Below the pieces are notes generated by a model. That model did not search any database and had not been told where the DNA came from. It was given only the letters and a program-made list of their open reading frames with translations. A DNA stretch of 35,977 nucleotides from IMG/VR virus record IMGVR_UViG_3300045988_082157. One strand, written 5' to 3'. Source of the DNA: a virus. The position numbers were made by a program, and so were the translations under genes. This document shows, piece after piece, positions 4,112-34,003 of this stretch (the first letter of the stretch is position 1; each line of letters opens with the position of its first letter).

Positions 4112-5148
4112 CAGGCGATCACCGCCCTTCTGGCCGTGTGCTCCATCAGCTCACCGGCAGCAAGCGTCAGCGACCATGCCGTCTCCTCGTAGATCCCGCC
4201 GATATCTGCATCATCAATGGAGATCACATCGCCGACTCCATGGCCGCCCTCGGCAAGACCGGAAAACGTTATGGTCTTCGTGGCAAACATCGATTCGTTG
4301 CGGAGTTTGTTGACAAGAGCCTGAAGCTCCGCCTGACTCGCGATGTTTTTCACGGTTGCAACATCCACAATGCGCATTTTGCGCTTGAACGTAGACGTGC
4401 TGGAGGTAGGGGAGTCGTTGACTGCCGTTGCAGTCATCGGCGCCGGAAGATCCGGGTTCGAGCAGATCCGCACGAACACGTTCGGCCGGTCAAACAGGTC
4501 GAACGCCTGCGTCCGATCGTCTGCCATCGGCAGCATTTGCACGTCTCGGCTGCTGTAAGCGTGATCGATGCGGCTGCTGTTCGGCTCGCGGTACGGTTCC
4601 AGGCGGCAGACGCCGCGCGCGTCGAACCACACGGGATTATAGTTGATCTCTGCCAGCAGATCGTTGCAGATCGCCAAATAATCCGTTCCGGCCTGCCAGT
4701 CCTCGCGGTCGGTCGCGAGGACGGCATCAGACGGCGAGGCGAGGATCAGTGTGATCCCTGCCTCCGTCAGCAGCTGCTGCACCGCCGTCAGATACGGCGT
4801 GCCGGCCGAAAAGTGGCGGATGTTTTCCGTCCGGCTCTGCTGCACGCGCCAGCAGCGATCATATGCCTCAATGCGCCAGAGCTTCCCGAACTCCGTCAGG
4901 GTGTCGTCAATGGTCGTCACCTGGAAGACGCCCAGCGGCATTTCTACGCCGTTTACGATCATCACGGGCTGGAGCTCGTCTGACAGCAGATCGGCCTTCT
5001 CGGACGGGCAGAGCGTCGCGGACAGGCTGCCCTTGATCTCTGCGTCCTTGTCAACGTAAATGTTGGGCGGGGAGTCCGTCGGCCACGTCATTTGCGTCAG
5101 CTGCGCGCCATTGCGCAGGACGTTCATCCGGAACGAAACATCACGCAT
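4111..5148 (-). CDS. Tail-associated (Tal/prophage-tail N-terminal-like) protein
   Basis: It follows the Dit-like gene in the standard siphovirus order. The preferred start is the ATG at 5148 (MRDVSFRMNV), which overlaps the upstream stop by 8 nt. The ORF track start at 5184 is an alternative. Confidence 0.6.
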   Translation of the reverse strand: MRDVSFRMNVLRNGAQLTQMTWPTDSPPNIYVDKDAEIKGSLSATLCPSEKADLLSDELQPVMIVNGVEMPLGVFQVTTIDDTLTEFGKLWRIEAYDRCWRVQQSRTENIRHFSAGTPYLTAVQQLLTEAGITLILASPSDAVLATDREDWQAGTDYLAICNDLLAEINYNPVWFDARGVCRLEPYREPNSSRIDHAYSSRDVQMLPMADDRTQAFDLFDRPNVFVRICSNPDLPAPMTATAVNDSPTSSTSTFKRKMRIVDVATVKNIASQAELQALVNKLRNESMFATKTITFSGLAEGGHGVGDVISIDDADIGGIYEETAWSLTLAAGELMEHTARRAVIA

Positions 5149-7453
5149 CAATGCGGATCGCCTCCTCCCAGTCCGCCTGATCAACGGAAAATGTATACAC
5201 GCTGTAAAAACCGCCGTCTGTGCGCTCCGTGAGCTGAGCGAGGCATCCGGTTACCATGCGCCCCTCCGGCGTGCGGACGGTAACAAGGTGGCCGAGCATG
5301 GCCTCCAGCACCGCGCAGTCCTCCTGCGTGTAAAACGCGCAGGCCACCGAGATGCTTTGTGCCATGTGCTCGCTGCGCTCGATCACCGGGTAAGCTCGCC
5401 CGGCGAGCTGGACGGCTTGGACTTCCTGCTTTCGCGTCCGCGACGTCGTCCGATGCGCGCTTTCTGAGTAGGGGAGCGGCAGGATCGCGCCGGTATCCAT
5501 GTCGGACAGCGTGATGTACTGCACCGCGATGGTTGCGGCGACCTCCGGGGACAGGCCATAGTTCGCGCTGCCGCTGTAGCAGCCCCGCACCTGATACCGC
5601 ACGGCGCCGACGCTGGCGGCGTCCGTGAAGCTGCGCTCCGTTGTGCGGCCGATGAGCCGCCCGTCGCGGTAGATCAGGAAGAAATCATAGCTCCCCGTGG
5701 TCTGCCAGGCCAGCAGCGCCGCGTCATCGGCGTCGACCGTCAGAGAGATCGCAGCCCCAGGGACGTTCACAACCTGAAGCGCGGCTTCGCCCCACGGTGA
5801 CCACAGCCCGTATTCGTTCTGCACGCGCACGCGCACAGTGTATGCTCCGTCGGAAAGATACGTCGGGCACGTCCACGTTTTCTCGGTGCCATAGTACACG
5901 CTGCTGACGGGCTGCCCTGCAAGCTCGACCTGGTAGGCAAGCTGTTCGGCAGATTGCCAGCCGACGACTGGGCGCGGCGTCTGAGCGCGGACGGCCAGAC
6001 TGGGCGCGGCAGGCGCGCCGACGCATATAAATTCGGCTGGTTCGCTCCATGCGCCTGCGGCATTGTCAGTGTTGTATGTGCGCACCCGCCAGTATTTTGT
6101 GCCGCCACCGAGCGTATTCGGAGGGGCAGTGTATGTCGTTTCAGCTCCGGTCACGGTTGCCAGCGCGTTCCATGTCTGCTTATCCGCAGATAATTGCAGC
6201 TCGGCCTTTGTCTGCTGCGTTCCGGTTGAGATTATGTGAGCCCACTTAAAAACTGTTGGGCTCGCATTGTCCACGACCTCGCCGTTCGGGGAAACCGCTT
6301 CAGCGCTGGACAGCACCTCCACTGTTGAGAGTTCCATCCATTCGGATGTTGCGGAAATACCTTCCGCAGTGGCCGCCGTTACCTGCCATTGAATTGTGTC
6401 TGTAGTGAATGTTCCGGCAGGTATAGTAACAGATGGCGTTTCACCGCATTGAATTGTGTGGATTGCGGAATTGCTTGAAGACCTCCAGCGGAAGGTTGCT
6501 GTTTTTTGTGGGAGGCGGGTATAGCTGTCGCCGTAATCATTTCTAATTTGGCTGAGCATCCATGTGAACACATTTGGCTTTGTTTTTGCAACATACCCTG
6601 ATGCAGGGCTCGCCGATTTAATTGCTACACCGTATACCTTGTGCTCAAACCATTCCGATGTAACAGTCACACCGTTGTTTGCTGTTGCGACAACGCGCCA
6701 CATAATATCCCCGACAGGGAGCACACCCGGCGGAACGAGAATGTAGCTAGAACTATTCTCATCGGGTTGCGTAGCGGCAATGTCAATATCATGTATGGAG
6801 CTTTCTGTTTTTCGCTTCCATTGCACCTTTGCACTTTGTTGCTTTACTGCTGTGTACGTCACGTTCGAACTCGGAAGTGCGAGCCATGAAATTTTGGTTT
6901 CCGTACCAGCGCCCCATCCAAAATAGTTAGTATCCGTGAAGTTCAGCGTTACGTTGGCATCGTCGAATTCGACTTTCAGCTTGGGTTTCTGTGCATGGCG
7001 CGTTGTTGCAAGAATAAAGTAAATATGAGCGTCAAAAATAGCTCCATTGTCCAAAAAGTATCTAGCTTCCTTTTCGCTGTTGCTCTTGTCCATGATAAAC
7101 GTGTCGGCAGCGTAGCACGGCAAATTGCGTTTTTCGACACCCACGCGGCCATACGTATTTGTTATATCACGGCCCCCAGTTGTATAGGTAATGGCTTCTG
7201 GATCGATCGGCCTATCTATTGAGCCCAAACGTAGAGTTGCATAGGAATCATTGTAAACAAAGGCAACGACATAACAGCTCGCTGTTATACTGATTATCCT
7301 TTTAAACTTATACGAATCTGGGATTTTTTCGAACTGAACGCAAAGATACTGTCCAGATTCATACTGTACCGTTGGCGATGCATGAAAGTTAGTGGTTGGG
7401 CTATTTGGATCAAATGCACCGGATTTAATTCCGTTCAGCGTAAGGAAACTCAT
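5141..7453 (-). CDS. Distal-tail (Dit)-like protein with several FN3/Ig-like repeats
   Basis: 770-aa ORF directly after the tape measure gene. It has recurring modules ending in W-x-V...S-x-W (IMWRVVATANNGVTVTSEW, IQWQVTAATAEGISATSEW, KYWRVRTYNTDNAAGAWSEP, YTVRVRVQNEYGLWSPW). The N-terminal third (about 6380-7453) is visibly more AT-rich. Confidence 0.65.
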   Translation of the reverse strand: MSFLTLNGIKSGAFDPNSPTTNFHASPTVQYESGQYLCVQFEKIPDSYKFKRIISITASCYVVAFVYNDSYATLRLGSIDRPIDPEAITYTTGGRDITNTYGRVGVEKRNLPCYAADTFIMDKSNSEKEARYFLDNGAIFDAHIYFILATTRHAQKPKLKVEFDDANVTLNFTDTNYFGWGAGTETKISWLALPSSNVTYTAVKQQSAKVQWKRKTESSIHDIDIAATQPDENSSSYILVPPGVLPVGDIMWRVVATANNGVTVTSEWFEHKVYGVAIKSASPASGYVAKTKPNVFTWMLSQIRNDYGDSYTRLPQKTATFRWRSSSNSAIHTIQCGETPSVTIPAGTFTTDTIQWQVTAATAEGISATSEWMELSTVEVLSSAEAVSPNGEVVDNASPTVFKWAHIISTGTQQTKAELQLSADKQTWNALATVTGAETTYTAPPNTLGGGTKYWRVRTYNTDNAAGAWSEPAEFICVGAPAAPSLAVRAQTPRPVVGWQSAEQLAYQVELAGQPVSSVYYGTEKTWTCPTYLSDGAYTVRVRVQNEYGLWSPWGEAALQVVNVPGAAISLTVDADDAALLAWQTTGSYDFFLIYRDGRLIGRTTERSFTDAASVGAVRYQVRGCYSGSANYGLSPEVAATIAVQYITLSDMDTGAILPLPYSESAHRTTSRTRKQEVQAVQLAGRAYPVIERSEHMAQSISVACAFYTQEDCAVLEAMLGHLVTVRTPEGRMVTGCLAQLTERTDGGFYSVYTFSVDQADWEEAIRIDA

Positions 7454-21362: not shown

Positions 21363-21759
21363 GACGTTCTCCTTTCTCGCTGCTCCGGACGCGCTGGCAG
21401 TCCGGGCAAAATTTTCGATTCGTGCAGCTCCACACGCCGCCGCGAGGCACGTTGTTCCGGAGCTCGCAATAAACGTTGTAGCATGGGCTTAGTTTGCGCG
21501 GAGCAGGGGAGCGCGCTGGCTTGCGATTGGGTGCCGGCTTCTCCGGCCTCTCCGGCTTCGGCCGCGTCTCGCGCCATGCGTTGCGCGCGCATCCGCAAGA
21601 CTGCGATTTCCCGCTGTTAAGCCGCCACGCCGCAACAACAGTTTCCCTGCCGCAATCGCACCGGCAGAGCCATAGCGCGTGACCATGCTGGTCACGGCCG
21701 GAAAATTCAAGCACATGCAGCTTCCCAAACTGCCTGTTTGTGAGATCAGTCCTGCGCAT
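21352..21759 (-). CDS. Hypothetical zinc-ribbon protein (135 aa)
   Basis: The preferred start is the ATG at 21759 (MRRTDLTNRQFGKLHVLEF...WLCRCDCG...SCGC), with GGAGG 9 nt upstream. Confidence 0.55.
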   Translation of the reverse strand: MRRTDLTNRQFGKLHVLEFSGRDQHGHALWLCRCDCGRETVVAAWRLNSGKSQSCGCARNAWRETRPKPERPEKPAPNRKPARSPAPRKLSPCYNVYCELRNNVPRGGVWSCTNRKFCPDCQRVRSSEKGERRDK

Positions 21760-23224
21760 TGTGTTTCGCCTCCGGCAACGGCAACCAGCGCAGGATTTCC
21801 CCATCATCCGGCTCCTTAAACCAACCGAGATACCCACCATGCACATCGTCGGTCTCATATATTATGGAGCCATATTCGGAGATAAGGAGTAGGACCGGGC
21901 CGTCTGGGAAATCGCGGTCTGTACGCCACCCGAGTTGTTCTGGGCCTGACGGCGTTGGCTTAAGATCATCCGTCAGCCCCAGCAGATAGTCCGCCGAGCA
22001 CCGGAGCGCCTTGCACAGCTCCGGCACATGCTTTGCATCTGGGTCGAGGACGTCCGTGTTATAAAAAAACTCGTCGCCGAAGTCCCCGTTTGCGTATGCG
22101 CGGATTTTCCAGACGGACTTGTCCACAGAATAATTCGCAAAGGCGAGTTTTACATCGTCCGCGAGGCCGGCCGCGTCGATGGCCTTCACGAGCCGCGCGG
22201 CCTTGCACTGGATGGTCGCCCGGTAGACGCGCTGCTTATTCTCCTTCGAGTCCTCCTCTTTTCGCTTCTCATCGGCGTTTTTGTCGGTGCGGTACTGCTT
22301 TGCCTTGGAGCACATCTGATCGCAGACGTCATAGCAGCCACGCGCTTTCGCGCCATACTCGCAGTCCATGCAGCATTTCTCGCCCAGACACTGCCCGCAC
22401 CACGAGTGGCAAAGCGCATCGTGCCGGAGCGTTGCGTCATCGCGGGAGCTCGGGCAGAGTTTGCGGTCGGGGCAGTGCAGACACGCACTCGGCCGCCATT
22501 TTGCACCGCCTTTGGCCAGCCCCCGCACCTGCTCAATTCCGGCAGATGTGGGAAATTCTTTCGTCCGGGCGAATGCGTCGCGCAGGCGCATCTGCAAGGC
22601 CACCTCGCACCGCGCAAGCTCCAAGGCCGTCGCGTCCGGGAGTTTCCCAGCCGCCCACTGCGTTTTGAAATCCTGAATCAGGTTCTCCTCGATCATGTGC
22701 AGGTTCGCAAGCTTTGTCTTACTGACGTTACAGGCTTCTGCCACATGGTCGCGCATCCGGCCGGGGAACTCCACGCCCTGTTCCTTGAGATCGTAGAGAA
22801 GCCGCTCGACGCGCTGCGCCGCCCGACTGATTTCGGCGCTGGTCAAAACGCGCGCGGTGGAGTTTGCCATAATCAGTTCAAGTTCTTCCATCGCCGCGCT
22901 GCGCGGGCTTCTTACAAAAACGGGAACCTTGCGCAGATCCTCTCGCCCTTCCGCGACGAGCGCCCGGACGGCGGCAGTGCGCCGGTGGCCGGAAATAAGG
23001 CGGTACTTGCCGTCCTCGGCCTCGGTTACGGTCGGCGGGTCCATAATGCCGGAAAGCGCGATGGAGTTTTTGAGATCTTCGAGCTTGTCTTCGTCGACCG
23101 CATAAAAGTTCGCGTCGTTTGCGATCAGATCGTCGATGTCCACTTGCAGCAGCTCACGCCCGGTGTCCGACTTGGACACCGCCTGCACCTGCTGGGCAAA
23201 AATACTCGATACGTCAAACGGCAC
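21746..23224 (-). CDS. parB: ParB-like protein (ParB/Srx N-terminal domain) with a Cys-rich middle region, a second HTH and a C-terminal extension
   Basis: YRLISGHRRTAAVRAL ParB-box motif. Immediately downstream of ParA. The preferred start is the GTG at 23224, which has better RBS spacing than the TTG at 23230. Confidence 0.75.
   Translation of the reverse strand: MPFDVSSIFAQQVQAVSKSDTGRELLQVDIDDLIANDANFYAVDEDKLEDLKNSIALSGIMDPPTVTEAEDGKYRLISGHRRTAAVRALVAEGREDLRKVPVFVRSPRSAAMEELELIMANSTARVLTSAEISRAAQRVERLLYDLKEQGVEFPGRMRDHVAEACNVSKTKLANLHMIEENLIQDFKTQWAAGKLPDATALELARCEVALQMRLRDAFARTKEFPTSAGIEQVRGLAKGGAKWRPSACLHCPDRKLCPSSRDDATLRHDALCHSWCGQCLGEKCCMDCEYGAKARGCYDVCDQMCSKAKQYRTDKNADEKRKEEDSKENKQRVYRATIQCKAARLVKAIDAAGLADDVKLAFANYSVDKSVWKIRAYANGDFGDEFFYNTDVLDPDAKHVPELCKALRCSADYLLGLTDDLKPTPSGPEQLGWRTDRDFPDGPVLLLISEYGSIIYETDDVHGGYLGWFKEPDDGEILRWLPLPEAKHNAQD
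23161..23181. repeat. Copy 2 of the 21-bp hairpin motif CGGTGTCCGACTTGGACACCG, inside the 5' end of parB (candidate parS)
   Basis: Exact 21-mer, identical to 3848-3868. It encodes AVSKSDTG of the ParB-like protein. Confidence 0.9.
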
Positions 23225-24020
23225 TTGCAAGCCCTCCCTCCAAAAGCTCGCCCATCGTCACGGGCGGCTGAATGTACTCCTGCACAAATGCCCGATAGTC
23301 GTAGCCTGCCGCCGAACGTGGCGAGTAGACCGTGATGGGCTTGCGCTCAAAGGTCATCTCGTCAATTTTGTCGGTGCGGCGGATGGTCTGCTCGAAGACG
23401 GGAAGAATGCCGCACTGTCGGAGGCTCGCCTCCGCCTCAATCACGACCGGCGTGTTGCGCCACATGGTGATCAAAGCGCCCGCGATCTTGAGTGCCGGGT
23501 TAATTTTGTGCATATTGTCGATCTGCCGCGAGACGTTTGCAAGCCCACGCAGGCTGAACGCGTCTAGCTTGATCGGGATGATGACCTCGTCGGAGGCCAG
23601 AAGCGCCGCAGCGCTTGCCGCGTTGAACGCCGGCGGGCAGTCAAAGATCACGTAATCATACGCATCATCTTCGCGAATGGCGTCGCAGAAATCCTTGAGA
23701 CAGGCGCCCTTGACGCGGTTTCCGATGGCAGACAGATCTAAGTCCATCAGCTGATCGGACGCGGGCAGCAGGTCGACCTTGTAGTCGGTCGCCCAGATAT
23801 TCTCCGCGTAATACGGCTCGGCTTCTCCCAGCATCACCTCGGCGACGCCACAGAGGTTCTGCCCGGCAAGGCCGTAAAACTCGGTGGCGTTGCACTGGCT
23901 GTCGCAGTCAGCAAGCAGCACGCGCTTTTTGTGGTCGGCGGCCAGAATATAGGCCATGTTCACGCTCGTGACGGTCTTTCCGACACCGCCTTTGAGATTT
24001 AATATCGAGATTGCTTTCAT
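23214..24020 (-). CDS. parA: ParA/Soj-family partition ATPase
   Basis: Deviant Walker A motif MKAISILNLKGGVGKTVTS. 268 aa. Confidence 0.9.
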   Translation of the reverse strand: MKAISILNLKGGVGKTVTSVNMAYILAADHKKRVLLADCDSQCNATEFYGLAGQNLCGVAEVMLGEAEPYYAENIWATDYKVDLLPASDQLMDLDLSAIGNRVKGACLKDFCDAIREDDAYDYVIFDCPPAFNAASAAALLASDEVIIPIKLDAFSLRGLANVSRQIDNMHKINPALKIAGALITMWRNTPVVIEAEASLRQCGILPVFEQTIRRTDKIDEMTFERKPITVYSPRSAAGYDYRAFVQEYIQPPVTMGELLEGGLASAV

Positions 24021-24038: not shown

Positions 24039-25370
24039 TTAAAATGGCACCGGGCAATCACCGGGCAGCTCGGTAAAGTCGAGCTGTGACACCTCCTCTG
24101 CCGGCGTCTTCGGGGGCGTCCAGTCGCGGCGCGACTCCATGAAGGTCTGCGTCTCGCCGTTGAATCGCAGATAAAACGAATTCCCAGCGATTCCGGTTTT
24201 GTTTTTCGCAACTGTAACAACGCGATCACAGTCCACGATTTTCTGGTTTTCGCGGAAGAGCAGCAAAATGAAGTCCGCGTCCTGCTCGATCTGACCGGAA
24301 CTGCGCAGGCTTGACATCGTGGGTGGTGGGATTTTGCCGGTCTTTTTGTTCGGCTCCGGGCGGCCCAGCTGCGACAACGCAATGATTGTCGGGCCGCCCT
24401 GGCGGCCGAACTGTTTCAGCGCACGCGAGACTGCGGTAACACGAGCATACTCCTGGTTTCCCCACGGCGTTTTGTCCGAGGACTCAATGAGCTGCAAGTA
24501 GTCGATGTAGATCACATCGTAGTGCTTGGCCATTGAGTACAGCCGGATATCGCCAACCGTCATACCGGCTGCCTCGATGATATCCAAATTTCTACCGCCG
24601 AAATCGCCGCTGATCGCGGCCAGCGTGTCCCAGTCATGGTCGTTCATGGCATTCAGCTGAATTTTCGGCAGGCCGATCTGCGCCGCCGCGGAGATCATTG
24701 CGTCTGCCAGCTTTTCGCAGTCTGTCTCAAAGCTGAAAAAGCCGACTTTCTTCGTCTTTGCCTGCTCGCGGGCGGTTGCTAACGCGAGTGTCGTTTTGCC
24801 GTCCGAGGGGTATCCGCCGATGATGCCAAAGTCACCGCGCATCGTGCGCAGATGGTCGTTGAGCTTTTCAAAGCGCCAGGGCAGATATGTCGGCTTTACG
24901 GATGGATCGTGGCGCTTGTAAAAGTCCGCGAGCGCGGCCTGCATCGTCATTGCCCGAACGCCCGGCCGATCCACCATAACAGCGTTGATGCGATCGAGCA
25001 TGGCCCGAATGTCGTCCTCCGTTTCCGCGGAGAGGATTTCTGCGGCCGCCTCCTGCATCAGCCGAAGGCGCGCTTGCCGTTTGAGATCGGCTATGTATGC
25101 CTTGACATGCGCCGCCGTCGGCGTCAGATCCATGATCTCGCGGAGCAGCTCCGTATAATCCTTGCCGATCACGCCGACGACCGTGACCGGATCGACCGGC
25201 CGCCCGCGTTGGAACAGACCACGCATAGCCTCGAAAATCGTGCGGTACGGGCCGTCGAAATACTCCGGTTTCAAAGCCTGGAGCGCAATGCCGACGGTGC
25301 GGTCGTCGATCAGCATAGACCCGATGACGCCAAGCTGCGCATTCAGCAGCGCTTGCCTGTTCTCCATCAC
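24039..25370 (-). CDS. dnaB: Replicative DNA helicase (DnaB family)
   Basis: DnaB-type N-terminal domain (LLNAQLGVIGSMLID) and a Walker A motif GGYPSDGKTTLAL. 443 aa. Confidence 0.9.
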   Translation of the reverse strand: MMENRQALLNAQLGVIGSMLIDDRTVGIALQALKPEYFDGPYRTIFEAMRGLFQRGRPVDPVTVVGVIGKDYTELLREIMDLTPTAAHVKAYIADLKRQARLRLMQEAAAEILSAETEDDIRAMLDRINAVMVDRPGVRAMTMQAALADFYKRHDPSVKPTYLPWRFEKLNDHLRTMRGDFGIIGGYPSDGKTTLALATAREQAKTKKVGFFSFETDCEKLADAMISAAAQIGLPKIQLNAMNDHDWDTLAAISGDFGGRNLDIIEAAGMTVGDIRLYSMAKHYDVIYIDYLQLIESSDKTPWGNQEYARVTAVSRALKQFGRQGGPTIIALSQLGRPEPNKKTGKIPPPTMSSLRSSGQIEQDADFILLLFRENQKIVDCDRVVTVAKNKTGIAGNSFYLRFNGETQTFMESRRDWTPPKTPAEEVSQLDFTELPGDCPVPF

Positions 25371-27093: not shown

Positions 27094-27207
27094 TCAAATA
27101 ATACCGAGAATGCCCAAAATTCGGACGGTGCAGATCACCAGCGTGATGGTGCAAACGATCAGGCGAAAAAGGAACCGCCTGTTCTCTCGTTCTTCCTTGC
27201 TTTGCAT
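27094..27207 (-). CDS. Hypothetical 37-aa single-pass membrane peptide (not listed as such)
   Basis: MQSKEERENRRFLFRLIVCTITLVICTVRILGILGII. Its ATG overlaps the stop of the Cro-like gene (TGATG). Confidence 0.4.
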   Translation of the reverse strand: MQSKEERENRRFLFRLIVCTITLVICTVRILGILGII

Positions 27208-27386
27208 CACTTTGCCTCCTCTCCGTTGTAAAGCTCGTCGATCGAGCAGCTCAGCGCCTTGGCCAGCGCCGGCAGCTGCGCGGCGCGCGGGTATGCTGAG
27301 CCGGACTCCCACTTCGCGATGCTGCTTCGTTCTACGCCGAGAATATCCGCAAGCTCGCGCTGGGTCATCTTCGCGCGTTCACGCAA
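27207..27386 (-). CDS. Cro-like XRE-family HTH protein (start uncertain: TTG 27386 or ATG 27368)
   Basis: Not in the ORF track (under 60 aa). It translates as ..RERAKMTQRELADILGVERSSIAKWESGSAYPRAAQLPALAKALSCSIDELY, a classic HTH_3 pattern. Confidence 0.7.
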   Translation of the reverse strand: MRERAKMTQRELADILGVERSSIAKWESGSAYPRAAQLPALAKALSCSIDELYNGEEAK

Positions 27387-27406
27387 ATAAGCTAGATTTT
27401 TCGTAC

Positions 27407-27595
27407 CTATCCCTCCCTTGTATCATCTGTATCATCAGTTTTTGGCGGATTCTCTGGCAAGCGAAGAAACTGACTGATGCCTGTAAGGTCGACTGCCTTC
27501 GGAGAAATTTCCATGCGCACCTCGCACGGCTTGTGGAGTTTCTCCAAGGCGGCGACACGCCGCTCAAGTCGGCGAAGCTTTTGCCCCTGATTCAT
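27407..27595 (-). CDS. Hypothetical protein, first gene of the early leftward operon (62 aa)
   Basis: The preferred ATG at 27595 is preceded by AAAGGAGGG with an 8-nt spacer. Confidence 0.5.
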   Translation of the reverse strand: MNQGQKLRRLERRVAALEKLHKPCEVRMEISPKAVDLTGISQFLRLPENPPKTDDTDDTREG

Positions 27596-27657
27596 TTCCG
27601 TTGCCCTCCTTTCTGTGCATATAAGCCACATGCTGTGTGGGTGATATTCACATTCTT

Positions 27658-27687
27658 CTTATAACACACATATGGCACATTTGTCAA
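27658..27687 (-). promoter_or_regulatory. Early (lytic) promoter candidate
   Basis: The minus strand reads TTGACA-18 nt-TATAAG. The -35 is bracketed by the inverted repeat GCACATT (27675-27681) / AATGTGC (27692-27698). Confidence 0.5.
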
Positions 27688-27711
27688 TAGTAATGTGCAA
27701 AAAATTCACTA

Positions 27712-27740
27712 TTGAAACGTTCACTATTTTCACATATACT
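27712..27740 (+). promoter_or_regulatory. Repressor-gene promoter candidate
   Basis: TTGAAA-17 nt-TATACT. Direct repeats TTCACTATT at 27705-27713 and 27720-27728 flank the -35. Confidence 0.55.
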
Positions 27741-27757
27741 TGAATTAGGTGATTCCA

Positions 27758-28087
27758 ATGAATAATTTCAAAAGGTTTCGTGAGCTAAACGGCGAGTCGC
27801 AACAAGCGGTTGCTGATTTTCTTGGCATTGATCGCTCAACATACACGAAGTATGAAACTGAGCAAAAGGCACCTCCATACTCCAAGATTGAGCGATTAGC
27901 GCAGCATTGGGGCACGACCGTCGCTACGCTAATGGGCACAGATGAGGGAACAAAAAACCTCACCGGGATTCCCGATGAGGTTTACGATATTGCACAAAAG
28001 GTCATGAGTCTGCCGCCTGCGGCGCAGACGGAAGCGCTTGCGTATCTCGATTTCCTAAAGCAGCGATATACGCGGAAAAAAGATTGA
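27758..28087 (+). CDS. CI-like XRE-family repressor
   Basis: FKRFRELNGESQQAVADFLGIDRSTYTKYE HTH. Divergent from the early operon. The ATG at 27758 has an AGGTGA RBS; the GTG at 27749 is an alternative start. Confidence 0.8.
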   Translation: MNNFKRFRELNGESQQAVADFLGIDRSTYTKYETEQKAPPYSKIERLAQHWGTTVATLMGTDEGTKNLTGIPDEVYDIAQKVMSLPPAAQTEALAYLDFLKQRYTRKKD

Positions 28088-28250
28088 GTTCTTCGGGGGA
28101 TAGCGTCAACAAATCGTTTATCAGCTCGTCAAACATCTCGCGCTTCCTTTCTCTGTGTTGTTTTCATTTTAGAATGTATGTTTTGAAATATCAATAGCAA
28201 ACCTTTACAAAATTCTCAGTGTTATTTTTACGTAAGGCGAGTGATGCAGT

Positions 28251-29402
28251 GTGAACTACAGCAAGAACATAGATAGCTACGGCTCAGAGTTTTGGAGTTT
28301 CAACGCCGCTGGGGTCAGTTACCCGAACAAAGATGGAACTTTACGGCAAGACATAATTGGCGCCTTGAACTGCGGCTCCCACTATAACTGTCGCATTGAC
28401 GAATATCTGTATCAGGAAGAAAAAGCTTACTACATTGTTATTGACGGCAAGATAGTCGGGAACGTGCCGCGAAACATCGCAAAAGAGTTCGCAGCCAAAT
28501 CGGCCGCTGGATATATAATGGAAATCACCGCCGCTGGGATTCACGGAGGCCCCAGCGCAGATTTTGACGATGACGATGATGACGGCGAGCCGCGATACTA
28601 CGGTGTGCATCTGACGGTAAAACTAATCAGCCCAACCGAGCAGAAAATTAAGAGTATCACTGAAACTGATGGCGTATATGCCGTGGGCGAGCCGGAACGA
28701 CACAGCAGTGTTCGTGACGAGCCAATTGACGAGCACATTGAAAGCCTCGAAAGCAACAGCCCAATCGAGCAAAAAATTAAGAGTAGCACTGAAACTGATC
28801 GCGTATATGCGGTGGGCGAGCCAGAACGACACGACAGTGTTCATGGCGAGCGAACTGATAAGTATATTGAAAGCCCCGAAAGCAACAGACCGCCGAAAAA
28901 AAACAAAAAACGGCTTAGCTTTCTCGGGACAGTTGCGATTCTGTTACTTGCGTTTATGGTGCTGACAGGTATCTCGAACGCACTGGCAAAGGCGCTGCAT
29001 ACAACAAAACACCCTACCGGCGAGCGGCTGAACATAAACAACGTTGAAAAGTATGCTCCGGATCTTAATGATAAACAGGAAGATCAGACTGCGCCAGCTG
29101 CGGCGGAAGCGTCGGACGGCGAAGAATATTACACCGAAGAAGAACAGGCCGCTGCCGCAGCGGCGTATTACGCGAGCATTGGAGGGAATCCATATCTGCA
29201 AGACGATGCAGAAGCAGATATGGCTGAGGAACCGACCGAAGAATCGTACACATATATTCTGAACACAAACACGAAAGTGTTCCATCGGCAAAACTGCTCA
29301 TCCGCAAAGCGGATCAAAGATAGCAGCCGCTCATCAGCGACTGGAACACGTGACGAAATAATTGGAAAGGGATATAGCCCGTGCGGCATATGCAAGCCGT
29401 AG
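28251..29402 (+). CDS. Membrane protein: N-terminal HIRAN-like domain, 2 x 43-aa repeat, TM helix, acidic linker, C-terminal Cys-rich (Ada-type Zn-binding-like) motif
   Basis: GTG start. It has a FNAAGVSY...IVGNVPRNIAKEFA pattern, a TM segment LSFLGTVAILLLAFMVLTGI, and the C-terminus KVFHRQNCSSAKRI...GYSPCGICKP. The segment is lower in GC. Confidence 0.7.
   Translation: MNYSKNIDSYGSEFWSFNAAGVSYPNKDGTLRQDIIGALNCGSHYNCRIDEYLYQEEKAYYIVIDGKIVGNVPRNIAKEFAAKSAAGYIMEITAAGIHGGPSADFDDDDDDGEPRYYGVHLTVKLISPTEQKIKSITETDGVYAVGEPERHSSVRDEPIDEHIESLESNSPIEQKIKSSTETDRVYAVGEPERHDSVHGERTDKYIESPESNRPPKKNKKRLSFLGTVAILLLAFMVLTGISNALAKALHTTKHPTGERLNINNVEKYAPDLNDKQEDQTAPAAAEASDGEEYYTEEEQAAAAAAYYASIGGNPYLQDDAEADMAEEPTEESYTYILNTNTKVFHRQNCSSAKRIKDSSRSSATGTRDEIIGKGYSPCGICKP
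28631..28888 (+). repeat. Tandem 129-bp direct repeat (2 copies) inside the 383-aa gene
   Basis: 28631-28759 and 28760-28888 align without gaps. They are nearly identical over the first ~75 nt and more diverged after that. Confidence 0.9.
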
Positions 29403-29423
29403 CGGTGCCCGACTTGGACACCG
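29403..29423. repeat. Copy of the 21-bp hairpin motif with 1 mismatch (CGGTGCCCGACTTGGACACCG)
   Basis: 20 of 21 positions match. It starts directly after the TAG stop of the 383-aa gene. Confidence 0.85.
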
Positions 29424-29626
29424 AGGGCACGCCGCGGATACGATGATCGCACATAGAGTTGCCCCGTATCGGCGTGCCGGCGTCGACACGGGGCGTTTCT
29501 GTGCGGCAGGCGATTGGGAGCGCCCGTGCTTCTACCTTACGCCGCGGGTAATGGTTAAGTCCACTACCTATCATGGGTTTTTTCGGGGAATGATGGTTTT
29601 CGCAAAATTAACGGAGGTGCATAATC

Positions 29627-30034
29627 GTGGAACGCATGTTGTGGGAGATCTGCCGCGATGCAAAAGCGGAACAGCGGCTGACGTATCAGCAGATTGCCGA
29701 TGCTGCCGGATTATCGGTAAACGCAGTAAGCCAGTATTTGCGAGGTGAGACAAAGAGCCCGTCCGTGTACACCGTGGGGCCGATCTGTGCGGCAATCGGC
29801 GTATCCATGAACGACTATTTCAGGATAGGGGAGAACACGTCGGAGAGTTTCTTGGCTCGCACGGAGGCTCTCCGGCTCGAAAATGCAAGTCTACGCACGC
29901 AGCGTGAGCATATGAAAAAATCATTGCGGATGCATCGCATTACAACCTTCATCTTGCTTGGCATTGTGGCCGTCTGCGTGCTGGCGCTGCTGGTGGACGT
30001 CCTGAACCCCGCCATCGGCTGGGTGCGCGCATGA
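29627..30034 (+). CDS. XRE-type HTH protein with a C-terminal transmembrane anchor
   Basis: GTG start with GGAGG 9 nt upstream. It has the HTH LTYQQIADAAGLSVNAVSQYLRGE, a coiled-coil segment, and the TM segment ITTFILLGIVAVCVLALLVDVL. Its stop overlaps the integrase ORF (ATGA). Confidence 0.7.
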   Translation: MERMLWEICRDAKAEQRLTYQQIADAAGLSVNAVSQYLRGETKSPSVYTVGPICAAIGVSMNDYFRIGENTSESFLARTEALRLENASLRTQREHMKKSLRMHRITTFILLGIVAVCVLALLVDVLNPAIGWVRA

Positions 30035-31497
30035 TGGAGGCTGATATGCAAGCACAGACACAGCGCGTCGCGGCGGCTTACATCCGCGTGTCGACGGACG
30101 ACCAGACGGACCTTTCTCCGGAGTCGCAGTTTGAGAAGATCCGCGAGTATGCCGCAAAAAACAACTTGATCCTGCTCTCGGAGTACATTTTTCGAGATGA
30201 TGGCATATCCGGCAGAGCGGCAGAAAAACGGCCGGGATTCCAACGGATGATCGCAGCGGCCAAAGACGCCGCGCATCCATTCGACGTGGTGATCGTTTGG
30301 AAGTATTCTCGTTTTGCGCGCAACCAGGAGGAATCAATATTTTACAAATCCGTGCTGCGCTCAAAATGCAATGTGGATGTGGTATCGGTTTCGGAGCCAT
30401 TGGTTGCCGGGCCTTTCGGCAGCCTGATCGAGCGCATAATAGAGTGGATGGATGAGTTCTACTCGATCCGCCTCTCCGAAGAAGTGAAGCGATCGATGAC
30501 GGTAAATGCGCAGAAGGGGAGGCTTCAGGCGACGCCGTCCTTTGGCTACTGCGTGAAGGATCACATGCTTGAGATCGTTCCGGAGGAGGCGGAGATCGTG
30601 CAGGAGATCTTCCGCCGTTTTGTCGCGGGCGACGCCATGTATGGAATAGCAATGGATGTAAACGCACGAGGTGTGCGGACGCACCGGGGAAACCCATTTG
30701 AGAACCGCACAGTAGACTATATCCTGAACAACCCAACATACATAGGCAAGCTCCGGTGGACGCCGACCGGGAAAACGCGCCGAAATTTTAAAAATCAGGA
30801 CAGCGTCATCGCGGATGGCGCGCACACACCAATCATCGACATGCAAATGTGGGAGGCCGCACAAGAGCGGATCGCGGAGCTAAAGCGTACATACAAGCGC
30901 TACAGCAAGCCGGCTGGAGATCGTAAGCACTGGCTTTGCGGGATTGTTCGTTGTCCGGGCTGCGGAGGGACGCTCGTGTACACCGCGCCGCATTACATGC
31001 AGTGCAACAACCGGCTAAAGGGCCGATGCGCCAGCTCACAGCATATCGCAGTCGAGCTGCTGGAAGAAGCTTTTTTGCAGCAGCTTCAGCATGATTTCAC
31101 GTTCGCCGAGGCGATGGCGTACACGGCCAACTATACACACAATGATCACGTTGCGGCGGCGCTTGCGCAAAAGCGCTCGAAAATCACAAGCCGCATGGCG
31201 CGGCTGAGGGAAGCGTATCTGGATGGCATCGAGTCGCTGCCAGAATATAAAGCATCCTTGCAAAAATTCCAGGAGCAGCTGTCGGAAATCGACGAAGAAA
31301 TCAAAAAAGCGGCAGAAACGCCCGAAGGCGTTTCCACCGAATCTATGCGTGAAGCCATAGCCTCCGTGCTCCGGACGCTGCGCGCGCCGGACGCAACTGT
31401 TGCGCAGAAATATGCAGCAGCTCAAGCCATCATCGACAAATGCTATTTTGATAAATCAAAGATGCTGCTGACGATTTCATACAATTTCAGCGTTTGA
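30031..31497 (+). CDS. int: Large serine recombinase (phage integrase)
   Basis: Resolvase-type N-terminus AAAYIRVSTDDQ, a recombinase domain, the zinc ribbon CGIVRCPGCGG...MQCNNRLKGRC, and a C-terminal coiled coil. The likely true start is the ATG at 30046 (GGAGG 5 nt upstream). Confidence 0.9.
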   Translation: MMEADMQAQTQRVAAAYIRVSTDDQTDLSPESQFEKIREYAAKNNLILLSEYIFRDDGISGRAAEKRPGFQRMIAAAKDAAHPFDVVIVWKYSRFARNQEESIFYKSVLRSKCNVDVVSVSEPLVAGPFGSLIERIIEWMDEFYSIRLSEEVKRSMTVNAQKGRLQATPSFGYCVKDHMLEIVPEEAEIVQEIFRRFVAGDAMYGIAMDVNARGVRTHRGNPFENRTVDYILNNPTYIGKLRWTPTGKTRRNFKNQDSVIADGAHTPIIDMQMWEAAQERIAELKRTYKRYSKPAGDRKHWLCGIVRCPGCGGTLVYTAPHYMQCNNRLKGRCASSQHIAVELLEEAFLQQLQHDFTFAEAMAYTANYTHNDHVAAALAQKRSKITSRMARLREAYLDGIESLPEYKASLQKFQEQLSEIDEEIKKAAETPEGVSTESMREAIASVLRTLRAPDATVAQKYAAAQAIIDKCYFDKSKMLLTISYNFSV

Positions 31498-31510
31498 TTT
31501 TTATCCCCGA

Positions 31511-31560
31511 AATCTTAGTAAGATGGAGTCCGACCCTCCTTACTCCATCTTACTAAGATT
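31511..31560. repeat. Perfect 19-bp inverted repeat with a 12-bp asymmetric spacer, between convergent genes (attP candidate and/or bidirectional terminator)
   Basis: aatcttagtaagatggagt (31511-31529), ccgaccctcctt, then actccatcttactaagatt (31542-31560). T-rich sequence follows on the plus strand. Confidence 0.85.
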
Positions 31561-32945: not shown

Positions 32946-33044
32946 AATAAATCCTCCGAATCAAAAAGTAAGCTGGCCAGCTCCTATCCTCATTATGCGC
33001 CCTGCCGTCGGAACAAAAAACCAACTTTCCGGCTACTTTTCGGG

Positions 33045-33076
33045 CAAAAAACAGCCACCCCATACAGGGCGGCTGT
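33045..33076 (-). terminator. Rho-independent terminator downstream of the NYN gene
   Basis: The minus strand reads ACAGCCGCCC-tgta-tGGGGTGGCTGT followed by TTTTTTG. Confidence 0.7.
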
Positions 33077-33088
33077 TGCATAGGATGT

Positions 33089-33796
33089 TTAATTCTGTTT
33101 TTCGATCGGAACGATTATTTTTTTATGTTCTCGCTTCTTCCAACACGATTTAAGCCCATCGATGTGCTCGAATAAATCCTTTGGGATTGTCGCCTCCATT
33201 GGGTCAAGGATGAAGTCAATCCCTTCCCGTCTGGCCAGTTTTGCTGCTGGTACGAAGTCGCTGTCGCCCGCAAGCAAGATTATCTGATCCACTTGCTTTT
33301 TGTAAGCTAACGATGCAATATCCAATCCGATGCGCATATCAACGCCTTTTTGGTTGAAGGAAATCGTAAAGTCTGATTCTTTCAAATCATCAACGTTTCG
33401 CTCTTTTCGGCACAGCGCCTTTGTTGCATCCGCGGAAAGTGCAAAGTGTGCACCGGCGTCAGACAACCGCCCCATCCGAAGTGCGACCTTGCGCTTCTTT
33501 TTCAATTCCTCAAAAAATGCATTTGCCCAACGGTAAGTATCGGATTTCCCGAAGTCGATCCCGCGCTTCAACGCCGGGTGATAGACTGTCTTTTTGAGCG
33601 GCGGGCAATCGTAATAGAAGATACGATACAGTTCACGTTCTTCTCTGTGATCATTGTCCTTTCCCTCGTCGCGAATATGCGTCATGCAATAGGCATACAA
33701 TTCGTTTGCACGGTCAATCGGGCTTTTATCGCCCCGAAGGTAAAACGCTCGCTTTCTGTAAAATGCACCATCTACAAGAATCGCTGTCTTTTTCAT
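33089..33796 (-). CDS. NYN (LabA-like, PIN-fold) domain protein, putative RNase
   Basis: ILVDGAFY, GVDMRIGLDI and ILLAGDSDFVPA motifs in the NYN order. The gene is visibly AT-richer than the rest of the phage and has its own promoter and terminators. Confidence 0.8.
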   Translation of the reverse strand: MKKTAILVDGAFYRKRAFYLRGDKSPIDRANELYAYCMTHIRDEGKDNDHREERELYRIFYYDCPPLKKTVYHPALKRGIDFGKSDTYRWANAFFEELKKKRKVALRMGRLSDAGAHFALSADATKALCRKERNVDDLKESDFTISFNQKGVDMRIGLDIASLAYKKQVDQIILLAGDSDFVPAAKLARREGIDFILDPMEATIPKDLFEHIDGLKSCWKKREHKKIIVPIEKQN

Positions 33797-33921
33797 ATGT
33801 CAGCTCCTAAAAAATGATGAAGCCCCCGGTTGCAGCATTCCCCGTATGAATGGGGTGCTTAATACCGGGGGCCTGTTAATGGCACAACGGACGTAGTAAA
33901 CAAACATTACTTTCGTTGTGC
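33797..33921 (-). promoter_or_regulatory. Structured ~120-nt leader of the NYN gene (two consecutive stem-loops, the second followed by a U-run)
   Basis: Stem 1 is GCACAACG (33882-33889) / CGTTGTGC (33914-33921). Stem 2 is GCCCCCGG (33822-33829) / CCGGGGGC (33865-33872), with an inner CCCC/GGGG helix. The A-run at 33809-33814 gives U6 on the transcript, just before the AGGAG RBS. Confidence 0.4.
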
Positions 33922-33925
33922 TTAT

Positions 33926-33954
33926 ATATTATGACAGCGAAAATTCAATGTCAA
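33926..33954 (-). promoter_or_regulatory. Near-consensus sigma-70-type promoter for the NYN gene
   Basis: The minus strand reads TTGACA-17 nt-TAATAT. Confidence 0.6.
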
Positions 33955-33980
33955 CCCATTTTGAAAAATTTAATATTCAA

Positions 33981-34003
33981 GAGCCGCCCTATCCGGGCGG
34001 CTC
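33981..34003 (-). terminator. Hairpin terminator at the end of the lysis/regulator operon
   Basis: GAGCCGCCC-tatcc-GGGCGGCTC spans the stop codon of the 74-aa gene. AT/T-rich sequence follows on the minus strand. Confidence 0.55.

Follow-up and report, generated by a model that had tools for sequence, protein, structure and literature searches.

A membrane-anchored protein with a HIRAN-like head and an Ada-type zinc module in the lysogeny region of a temperate gut phage

Introduction

Genes that neighbour a prophage repressor are an established source of functions in exclusion and defence, and very few of them are understood in the phages of gut Clostridia. The window analysed here, the 35,977-nucleotide stretch of IMG/VR record IMGVR_UViG_3300045988_082157 at its full length, is the complete genome of a temperate siphovirus of gut spore-forming bacteria. 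It encodes a terminase, a portal, a major head protein, a tape measure, a collagen-like fibre, ParA/ParB and DnaB on the minus strand. A complete open reading frame (ORF) for 383 amino acids (aa) is located at 28251–29402 on the plus strand, with a GTG start and the stop codon included. It lies between a repressor-like gene and the integrase gene on the same strand, as had been stated in an earlier annotation made from the letters alone (the sequence-only reading). What is this protein composed of, and what might it do for a lysogen?

The sequence-only reading had called the protein an orphan. A database search at E ≤ 1e-3 corrects that description: it returns 34 homologues, one of which is 100% identical, and a profile of the N-terminal domain retrieves 822 relatives. 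Loci of this kind are already known; what is new is the combination of known domain superfamilies.

The N-terminal head is a divergent HIRAN-like domain

The N-terminal domain (aa 1–126; 28251–28628, plus strand) is predicted to be cytoplasmic and, judged by profile homology, represents a branch of the HIRAN superfamily that is divergent and uncharacterised. The profile that carries this assignment (A3) was built from 8 close relatives, none of which is recognised as HIRAN by Pfam, and was searched exhaustively against 1.84 billion (1.84e9) proteins at E ≤ 1e-3. Among the 822 proteins matched are P0065 (8e-16) and P0110, P0148, P0160 and P0167 (3e-11 to 9e-10). Pfam places HIRAN above threshold in all five, at coordinates that coincide with the A3 match. 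By this evidence the link to HIRAN is transitive, and it is non-circular because the A3 profile was built from Pfam-HIRAN-negative relatives. A relative at locus L023 serves as a bridging sequence to HIRAN with 22 bits. A broadened profile, which includes HIRAN-positive members, placed five HLTF HIRAN chains at the top of the PDB sequences (E 0.012). hhalign of the shallow A3 profile against an HLTF sequence gave E 0.06, which is not significant.

The divergence of this branch is evident from standard scans. The Pfam HIRAN model (PF08797) gave no match at E ≤ 10 to the isolated domain, to P0016 or to P0020, and it matches only 14 of 142 N-domain relatives. No match to the protein came from Pfam, NCBIfam or PADLOC, and phmmer searches of the PDB with the protein and with the N-domain returned chance matches only. 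The sole PHROG match to the N-domain is phrog_37629 (function not assigned), with E 1e-5. The AlphaFold2 (AF2) model of the N-domain, computed from an 8-sequence alignment, has a predicted local distance difference test score (pLDDT) of 87 and a predicted template modelling score (pTM) of 0.79; the model of the entire protein from its single sequence has a pLDDT of 48 and is unusable. A Foldseek search of the BFVD with the N-domain model listed a protein named 'HIRAN domain' at rank 5 (E 0.013, template modelling score 0.43).

Compared with HIRAN domains of HLTF/Rad5 and of the HipN/HipL-associated type, the head of the window protein shows profile homology to bona fide HIRAN proteins over the same region. 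Its secondary-structure elements follow the order seen in HLTF HIRAN, to which the core motif 'A-x-x-V ... G-x-x-(I/V)-G-x-(V/L)-P ... la..la' also aligns. However, the head is membrane-tethered and acidic, carries an acidic insert loop and a signature of its own, and is fused to neither a helicase nor a kinase. The family signature comprises GV(T/S)(F/Y)xNxDGxxRQ, PA and IGNVP, with G21, V22, N26, G29, R32, Q33, A59 and G70 nearly invariant. The insert loop DFDDDDDDGE (aa 104–113; 28560–28589, plus strand) contains the DDDDDD run that had been pointed out before. It is located between two strands inside the N-domain rather than in a linker beyond it, is modelled with low confidence (pLDDT <50 at residues 107–110), and is variable yet acidic among the relatives. 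The HipA-associated HIRAN proteins (HipN/HipL; PADLOC PDC-M03) are described in PMC8262856 and PMC11706625; in contrast to them, the window protein has no kinase in its neighbourhood and no PADLOC match.

The family is large and mostly tied to membranes. About 70% of the N-head cluster representatives (102/145) have transmembrane segments, placed after the domain in 35 (26 of them tail-anchored) and before it in 67, and most family members lack the outer module described below. IMG/VR holds 184 loci encoding N-head relatives. The HIRAN superfamily gains a large, unannotated, mostly membrane-anchored branch, almost none of which is recognised by Pfam. Literature searches returned no account of a membrane-anchored or prophage-switch HIRAN protein, and none of the Ada-like nuclease tail treated next.

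The C-terminal module resembles the zinc domain of Ada

The last 51 residues (aa 333–383; 29247–29399, plus strand) form a putative Ada-type zinc module with H345, C349, C378 and C381 as candidate ligands. The motif F-H345-x3-C349 ... C378-x2-C381-K-P is invariant in 14 full-length relatives. A profile of 16 modules from diverse carriers was compared with the PDB, and its top four matches were all the N-domain of E. coli Ada (1ADN/1EYF, 1U8B, 1ZGW and 1WPK; E 4e-4 to 1e-3 over 43 aligned residues). The Ada-like character that the sequence-only reading had seen in this Cys motif is thereby upheld at the level of the superfamily, with E 4e-4 for 1ADN. Pfam PF02805 reaches 15.2 bits on the isolated module, below its cutoff of 23 (E 0.022), and 20 bits on P0030; precomputed PF02805 matches exist for some relatives.

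In the alignment to Ada, H345 corresponds to Cys38, C349 to Cys42, C378 to Cys69 and C381 to Cys72. The module shares the pattern F-x-x-x-x-C ... G-(F/Y)-x-P-C-x-x-C-x-P with the Ada N-domain (PF02805), with three zinc ligands of the four retained and a His at the remaining position. These ligand positions are invariant in the 16 diverse modules, and the first is His, not Cys, in all of them. Because an invariant His replaces the methyl-acceptor Cys38, the alignment excludes Ada-type methyl acceptance and methyl-phosphotriester repair for this module. It is most simply predicted to be a His-Cys3 zinc knuckle, which may keep the backbone-binding surface of Ada. Unlike E. coli Ada, the module is about 50 aa long, C-terminal and free-standing, without an AraC or methyltransferase part.

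Most carriers of this type of module differ from Ada in another respect: they hold it extracytoplasmically, at the end of secreted nucleases. The tail of Endonuclea_NS_2 'DNA-entry' nucleases of phages and bacteria consists of the same module, as had been anticipated for secreted nucleases, and these proteins start with a signal peptide, a lipobox or a transmembrane anchor. They include nucleases of Heliusvirales phages of Evtepia, Faecalimonas, Blautia and Clostridium, and the module is predicted to act outside the cell in them. The modules of these secreted nucleases (PF13930/PF01223) are 44–65% identical to that of the window protein and likewise follow a low-complexity linker. However, the window protein has no nuclease domain and carries a transmembrane helix and a cytoplasmic HIRAN-like head instead. 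A scan of GTDB species genomes found the C-module only and never the full-length protein. A non-catalytic His-Cys3 Ada zinc domain is a mobile module that phage nucleases are predicted to use outside the cell.

A repeat, a membrane helix and an outer linker connect the two modules

A 129-bp tandem repeat (28628–28888, plus strand) encodes aa 127–212 as an acidic spacer that is predicted to be cytoplasmic and disordered. Tandem Repeats Finder reports 2.0 copies with 87% matches and no indels, the two 43-aa units are identical at 32 of 43 positions, and the region has a pLDDT <50 in the whole-protein AF2 model. The two repeats that had been read from the sequence are therefore real, and relatives carry 1 or 2 copies. 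A role of the repeat as a DNA-level element (iterons, operators) was considered and rejected: it is in frame, changes copy number by whole units and evolves as a relaxed coding spacer.

In one relative, P0014 (273 aa with its start at M90; 2.1-kb contig), the second repeat is read in the +1 frame, and the original frame is restored ahead of the transmembrane helix. The change amounts to two compensating frameshifts beside A-runs and maps to 28760–28900 of the window; it reflects either an assembly error or slippage-prone homopolymers that flank the repeat.

The basic cluster KKNKKR (aa 216–221; 28896–28913, plus strand) precedes a single transmembrane helix (aa 222–244; 28914–28982, plus strand), in line with the earlier annotation. 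Transmembrane segments were called from Kyte-Doolittle windows only; this one has a 19-residue mean of 2.3 and is the sole segment above 1.4. The AF2 model is helical at residues 224–249, over the transmembrane segment. The following region (aa 245–332; 28983–29246, plus strand) is predicted to be extracytoplasmic. It is acidic, as had been noted, with 20 D/E against 4 K/R in the linker (aa 251–330), and it contains two motifs. The juxtamembrane motif PxGERLNxxNxExYAP (aa 255–270; 29013–29060) has invariant columns at P255, G257, E258, R259, L260, N261, N264, E266, Y268, A269 and P270. The second motif, YYTEEEQAxAAxxYYxSIGGNPY (aa 293–315; 29127–29195), is present in P0016–P0025 and absent from the 320-aa variants. 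Since both motifs are conserved across divergent relatives, the outer region appears to be more than a spacer. The region of the second motif also shows weak matches to phrog_7291; a tblastn search with this motif returned no match, for which low-complexity masking is the probable cause.

We favour a topology in which the N-head is cytoplasmic and the zinc module is outside. The N-in orientation is favoured by the positive-inside rule, since 6 K/R occur in the 15 residues before the helix and 3 in those after it. The N-head is placed in the cytoplasm because close relatives are tail-anchored and have no signal peptide, and the zinc module would face outward because the same module is extracytoplasmic in nucleases. 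In the relative at locus L020, the cytoplasmic DNA-binding domain FtsK_gamma shares its side of the membrane with the N-head.

The two halves are exchanged by recombination and both heads are under selection

Full-length relatives are 305–383 aa long, and their length depends on whether the repeat unit is present once or twice and on which of three outer-linker variants they carry. All relatives share the MNY start. The C-terminal half, consisting of the transmembrane helix, the linker and the Cys motif, follows an unrelated and very basic N-terminus (MGRKKSxIPGFSLNRALG...) in P0017–P0024. Conversely, the N-domain occurs with other C-termini in P0020 and in the tail-anchored proteins P0037–P0040 of about 204 aa. 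Sibling prophages hold either version of the N-terminal half in the same slot. The relatives of 314 aa in L020 (5001–5945) and L022 (5001–5945) occupy this slot beside the repressor too; they combine a HIRAN-like head with an FtsK_gamma winged-helix domain (E 9e-17) and a tail anchor.

The site of exchange can be located by comparison with prophage L001, which has about 93% homology to the window. The homology is lost at 27620 and returns at 28929, a position within the ORF that falls in the transmembrane helix; this indicates that the low-GC (guanine plus cytosine) segment with the repressor gene and the N-terminal half has been exchanged as a unit. Thus, the two modules appear to be combined and exchanged via recombination at the transmembrane helix.

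The ratio of non-synonymous to synonymous substitution rates (dN/dS) between the window and L004 is 0.07 for the N-head and 0.06 for the C-module, compared with 0.25 for the repeat region and 0.58 for the outer linker. Between copy 1 and copy 2 of the 43-aa unit it is 0.57. Both heads are under strong purifying selection and hence functional, and the repeat behaves as a relaxed spacer.

A possible envelope factor of lysogens

We tentatively regard the protein as an accessory envelope factor of lysogens that acts on, or excludes, foreign DNA or its delivery machinery, a reading that we consider possible. It is suggested by a position like that of Ltp and Sie2009, by the membrane tethering, and by the DNA-related ancestry of the heads and of the FtsK_gamma insert. 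Because it lacks a catalytic domain, the protein would probably work by binding. A bitopic, two-headed membrane protein would be made in lysogens, with its N-head tethered at the inner face of the membrane and its zinc module directed outward. The outer module might bind the DNA backbone or another phosphodiester polymer, and the inner head might bind emerging DNA or a basic DNA-associated protein. The number of repeats would set the reach of the inner head from the membrane. Interference with foreign DNA or its delivery machinery at the envelope would then result in superinfection exclusion (Sie) or a related defence.

The closest functional parallels are the Sie proteins of Gram-positive phages, Ltp of TP-J34 and Sie2009 of the lactococcal P335 phages, which are anchored in the membrane, have their genes in the lysogeny module and prevent DNA injection (PMC3952083). 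They are expressed from the prophage. The window protein resembles them in its position in the lysogeny module beside the repressor and integrase genes, in its membrane anchor and in the absence of an enzymatic domain. It differs in adding a large folded cytoplasmic head to an outer module, whereas the site of action of known Sie proteins is the outer face or the membrane itself. A more specific version of the envelope factor is an exclusion protein of a new class that guards both faces of the membrane. Its outer module, taken from DNA-entry nucleases, would bind DNA or a phosphodiester polymer at the entry site. In the cytoplasm, the tethered HIRAN-like head would seize the foremost end of DNA arriving by infection or transformation, or else a basic piloting protein, and repeat copies would tune the reach. 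We consider this version unlikely. Should the protein indeed exclude DNA, it would be an exclusion factor with a new type of mechanism.

Several observations weigh against an envelope factor of this design. PHROG, Pfam (including Lipoprotein_Ltp) and PADLOC scans revealed no homology to a known Sie, abortive infection (Abi) or PADLOC family. A match to the 'superinfection exclusion' family phrog_4980 (E 0.008) was rejected as noise; it falls on the transmembrane and low-complexity region, and 10 relatives do not show it. A Foldseek search of the PDB with the N-domain model had no HIRAN among the 50 matches listed (best E 0.34). We take the 3´-OH and base-stacking pocket of HLTF to be formed by Tyr72, Tyr93, Asp94 and Phe142. 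In the broadened-profile alignment, a consensus Gly stands opposite Asp94, and Tyr93 has no counterpart; the family consensus at the pocket is Y-x-Y-x-G-x-P-A. The roles of these pocket residues are described in part in PMC8262856. Among 68 representatives, 94% have an N-head with a negative net charge (median -7), and the window N-domain has a net charge of -8. Since the equivalents of Tyr93 and Asp94 are missing and the head is net negative, DNA-end binding by the N-head is doubtful; it is possible and not favoured by the charge. The HIRAN-like domain proposed in the sequence-only reading therefore stands at the superfamily level by profile transitivity, whereas its literal role as a binder of 3´ DNA ends is weakened by the pocket, the charge and the Foldseek result in the PDB.

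Other points concern the membrane. The topology is drawn from a hydropathy calculation and from analogy. The relative at L023 has two N-terminal transmembrane segments followed by both modules with no transmembrane segment between them, which places the modules on one side of the membrane. Given the many relatives without an outer module and the one-sided arrangement in L023, placement on both sides of the membrane does not appear to be essential to the family. The earlier proposal that the modules lie on opposite sides is thus in keeping with the positive-inside rule, the tail-anchored relatives and the secreted nucleases for the window protein, and does not extend to L023. Moreover, a sibling prophage has the very basic, unrelated N-head in place of the acidic one, which argues against a single shared cytoplasmic ligand.

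Alternative explanations

The main rival, which we consider somewhat unlikely, is that the N-head is a partner of the adjacent regulator with an XRE-type helix-turn-helix (HTH) domain, in a lysis-lysogeny circuit or in the autoregulation of the cassette. For example, a membrane-tethered acidic domain could mimic DNA and thereby sense or sequester the repressor, Cro or another DNA-binding protein related to them, in a slot that is occupied by ImmA-type anti-repressors in other Gram-positive elements. The arrangement of neighbouring genes points in this direction. Because viral loci are redundant, 89 loci from two scans were grouped into 25 clusters at 60% identity, and HTH neighbours were identified by applying an XRE-HTH profile, built locally, to ORFs from a mechanical listing. 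An HTH gene is immediately upstream on the same strand in 17 of the 25 clusters, with an operon-like coupling (median gap of 21 bp, some genes overlapping); the only HTH gene is divergent in 5, another HTH gene lies within 2 kb in 2, and none is found in 1. By these neighbour counts, the conserved unit is an XRE-HTH gene together with a HIRAN-like membrane protein, and the new HIRAN-like branch is consistently paired with an XRE regulator. The slot beside the repressor is the same in L001, L004 and L017–L022.

The joint exchange of the repressor and the N-terminal half between the window and L001, the strong acidity of the N-head and the spacers, and the 112-aa size of a repressor that has no cleavage domain of its own are also consistent with a regulatory partnership. 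However, no obvious co-variation is seen, with the N-heads 47–61% identical across relatives and the adjacent repressors 38–79% identical to that of the window. A membrane anchor and an outward module would not be needed for such a role, and the joint exchange may be mere linkage in one low-GC cassette. In addition, an adjacent HTH gene is also typical of self-regulated defence and accessory cassettes. The pair of HTH and HIRAN-like genes in L083, which follows the lysis genes beside a transposase-like ORF, is in a classic accessory-gene position. If a repressor partnership is true, the protein would be a new element of lysogeny control.

A role as a lysogenic-conversion factor that targets free or transforming DNA, and not phages, seems very unlikely to us. 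In that case, the outer module would capture DNA and the inner head would intercept single strands, which would block transformation (and prophage curing) or alter a surface that depends on extracellular DNA. The outer module is that of DNA-entry nucleases, and transforming single-stranded DNA enters Gram-positive cells 3´ end first. Studied HIRAN domains bind DNA ends (PMC8262856), which also speaks for such a factor. However, most family members have no outer module, and the N-head is acidic and lacks the residues of the 3´-end pocket.

The probability is smaller still for a tether that attaches the phage's own DNA, or a replication or partition complex, to the membrane together with ParA/ParB, DnaB and the HTH protein with a transmembrane helix encoded downstream. 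The phage does encode ParA, ParB and DnaB, the downstream gene for a second membrane-anchored DNA-binding protein is conserved, and some relatives contain an FtsK_gamma domain. Nevertheless, the gene is on the lysogeny strand, away from the replication genes, and the phage integrates by a serine recombinase. The slot is also interchangeable with an unrelated N-head, and the family is found in accessory-gene positions in other phages.

Finally, a functionless mosaic ORF produced by recombination and repeat expansion, which would account for the recombination junction inside the ORF, the variable repeat and linker content and the degenerate frameshifted copy P0014, is effectively refuted by the purifying selection on both terminal domains (omega 0.06–0.07), the invariant start, ribosome-binding site and motifs, the confident fold prediction of the N-domain and the size of the family.

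The lysogeny region and the integration site

The ORF is preceded by a ribosome-binding site, AAGGCGAG, read from the sequence at 28234–28241 (plus strand), 9 nt before the GTG and also present in L004 and L005. The XRE-type HTH repressor-like gene (112 aa; 27749–28087, plus strand; Pfam HTH_31 and HTH_3) is directly upstream on the same strand, and a Pfam scan detected no cleavage domain in its product. A consensus scan located a promoter-like site TTGAAA-17-TATACT (27712–27740, plus strand) before the repressor gene, and no plus-strand terminator-like site was seen in a scan from the repressor gene to the ORF. The Cro-like HTH gene (27207–27386, minus strand; Pfam HTH_3, E 5e-14) is divergent from the lysogeny genes and has homologues in the same place in L017–L022.

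The sequence-only reading did not mention a further gene between the ORF and the integrase gene, at 29627–30034 (plus strand). It encodes an HTH protein of 135 aa (Pfam HTH_3) with a C-terminal transmembrane helix, and its stop overlaps the start of the integrase gene (ATGA at 30031–30034). Its homologues, 33–37% identical, are located 3´ of the HIRAN-like gene in L017–L022, and L001 and L004 have HTH genes of equal size at this position. The protein is predicted to be a second membrane-tethered DNA-binding protein within the same operon-like block. The integrase gene (30031–31497, plus strand) encodes a large serine recombinase with Pfam Resolvase, Recombinase and Zn_ribbon_recom domains. The repressor-like gene, the gene for the 135-aa HTH protein and the integrase gene share the plus strand with the ORF, and the other large phage ORFs are all on the minus strand. 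The GC fraction is 0.45 at 27501–28500 compared with about 0.58 elsewhere in the window, which bears out the AT-richer segment described previously. A search of the DNA at 27400–31500 against 50,697 phage records gave no match, and Rfam and tRNA scans of the window returned none.

Sibling prophages are located beside cotJA/cotJB. The homology between the window and integrated prophages stops at about 31520–31540 (about 31536), right after the integrase gene, at a common core ...GATGGAGTCCGxCCCxCC. Beyond the core, prophages L001 (10845–10952, minus strand) and L004 (11076–11183, minus strand) contain a 35-codon stump, MFVYEKRLEYPVRIANTNPRLAAIIISQYGGPD.., with a weak Mn_catalase match, immediately 3´ of cotJA/cotJB. 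Integration thus appears to take place in the spore-coat gene cotJC of a spore-forming host, with the window representing the attP form. Other serine-recombinase elements also interrupt sporulation genes.

Other features of the window

Despite the serine integrase and the integrated state, the window encodes a ParB-like protein (21746–23230) and a ParA-like protein (23214–24020) next to DnaB (24039–25370), all on the minus strand. A 770-aa ORF (5141–7453, minus strand) lies between the tape-measure and tail-fibre genes and has no PHROG match at E ≤ 1e-5; its portion at 6501–7453 is within a low-GC island (GC 0.44–0.48). A second low-GC island (33001–34000) overlaps a 235-aa ORF (33089–33796) that matches phrog_5783 (function not assigned).

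A candidate small antisense gene, which looks complete, was observed at 27955–28194 (minus strand) between the repressor gene and the 383-aa ORF. It has a promoter-like site TTGATA-17-TAAAAT (28194–28166), a ribosome-binding site AGAAAGGAAG and a terminator with a 13-bp stem at 27983–27955. Its 44-aa ORF (28136–28002; MFDELINDLLTLSPEELNLFSAYIAALGNRDTQ...) covers the final 28 codons of the repressor gene, and there is no gene call at this place in public contigs. The peptide is conserved, with 91% identity in L004 and L005, 70% in L017, 64% in L018 and 45% in L021. Across the 16 codons that are free of overlap, a comparison of the window with L017 shows 5 changes that are synonymous and 5 that are conservative.

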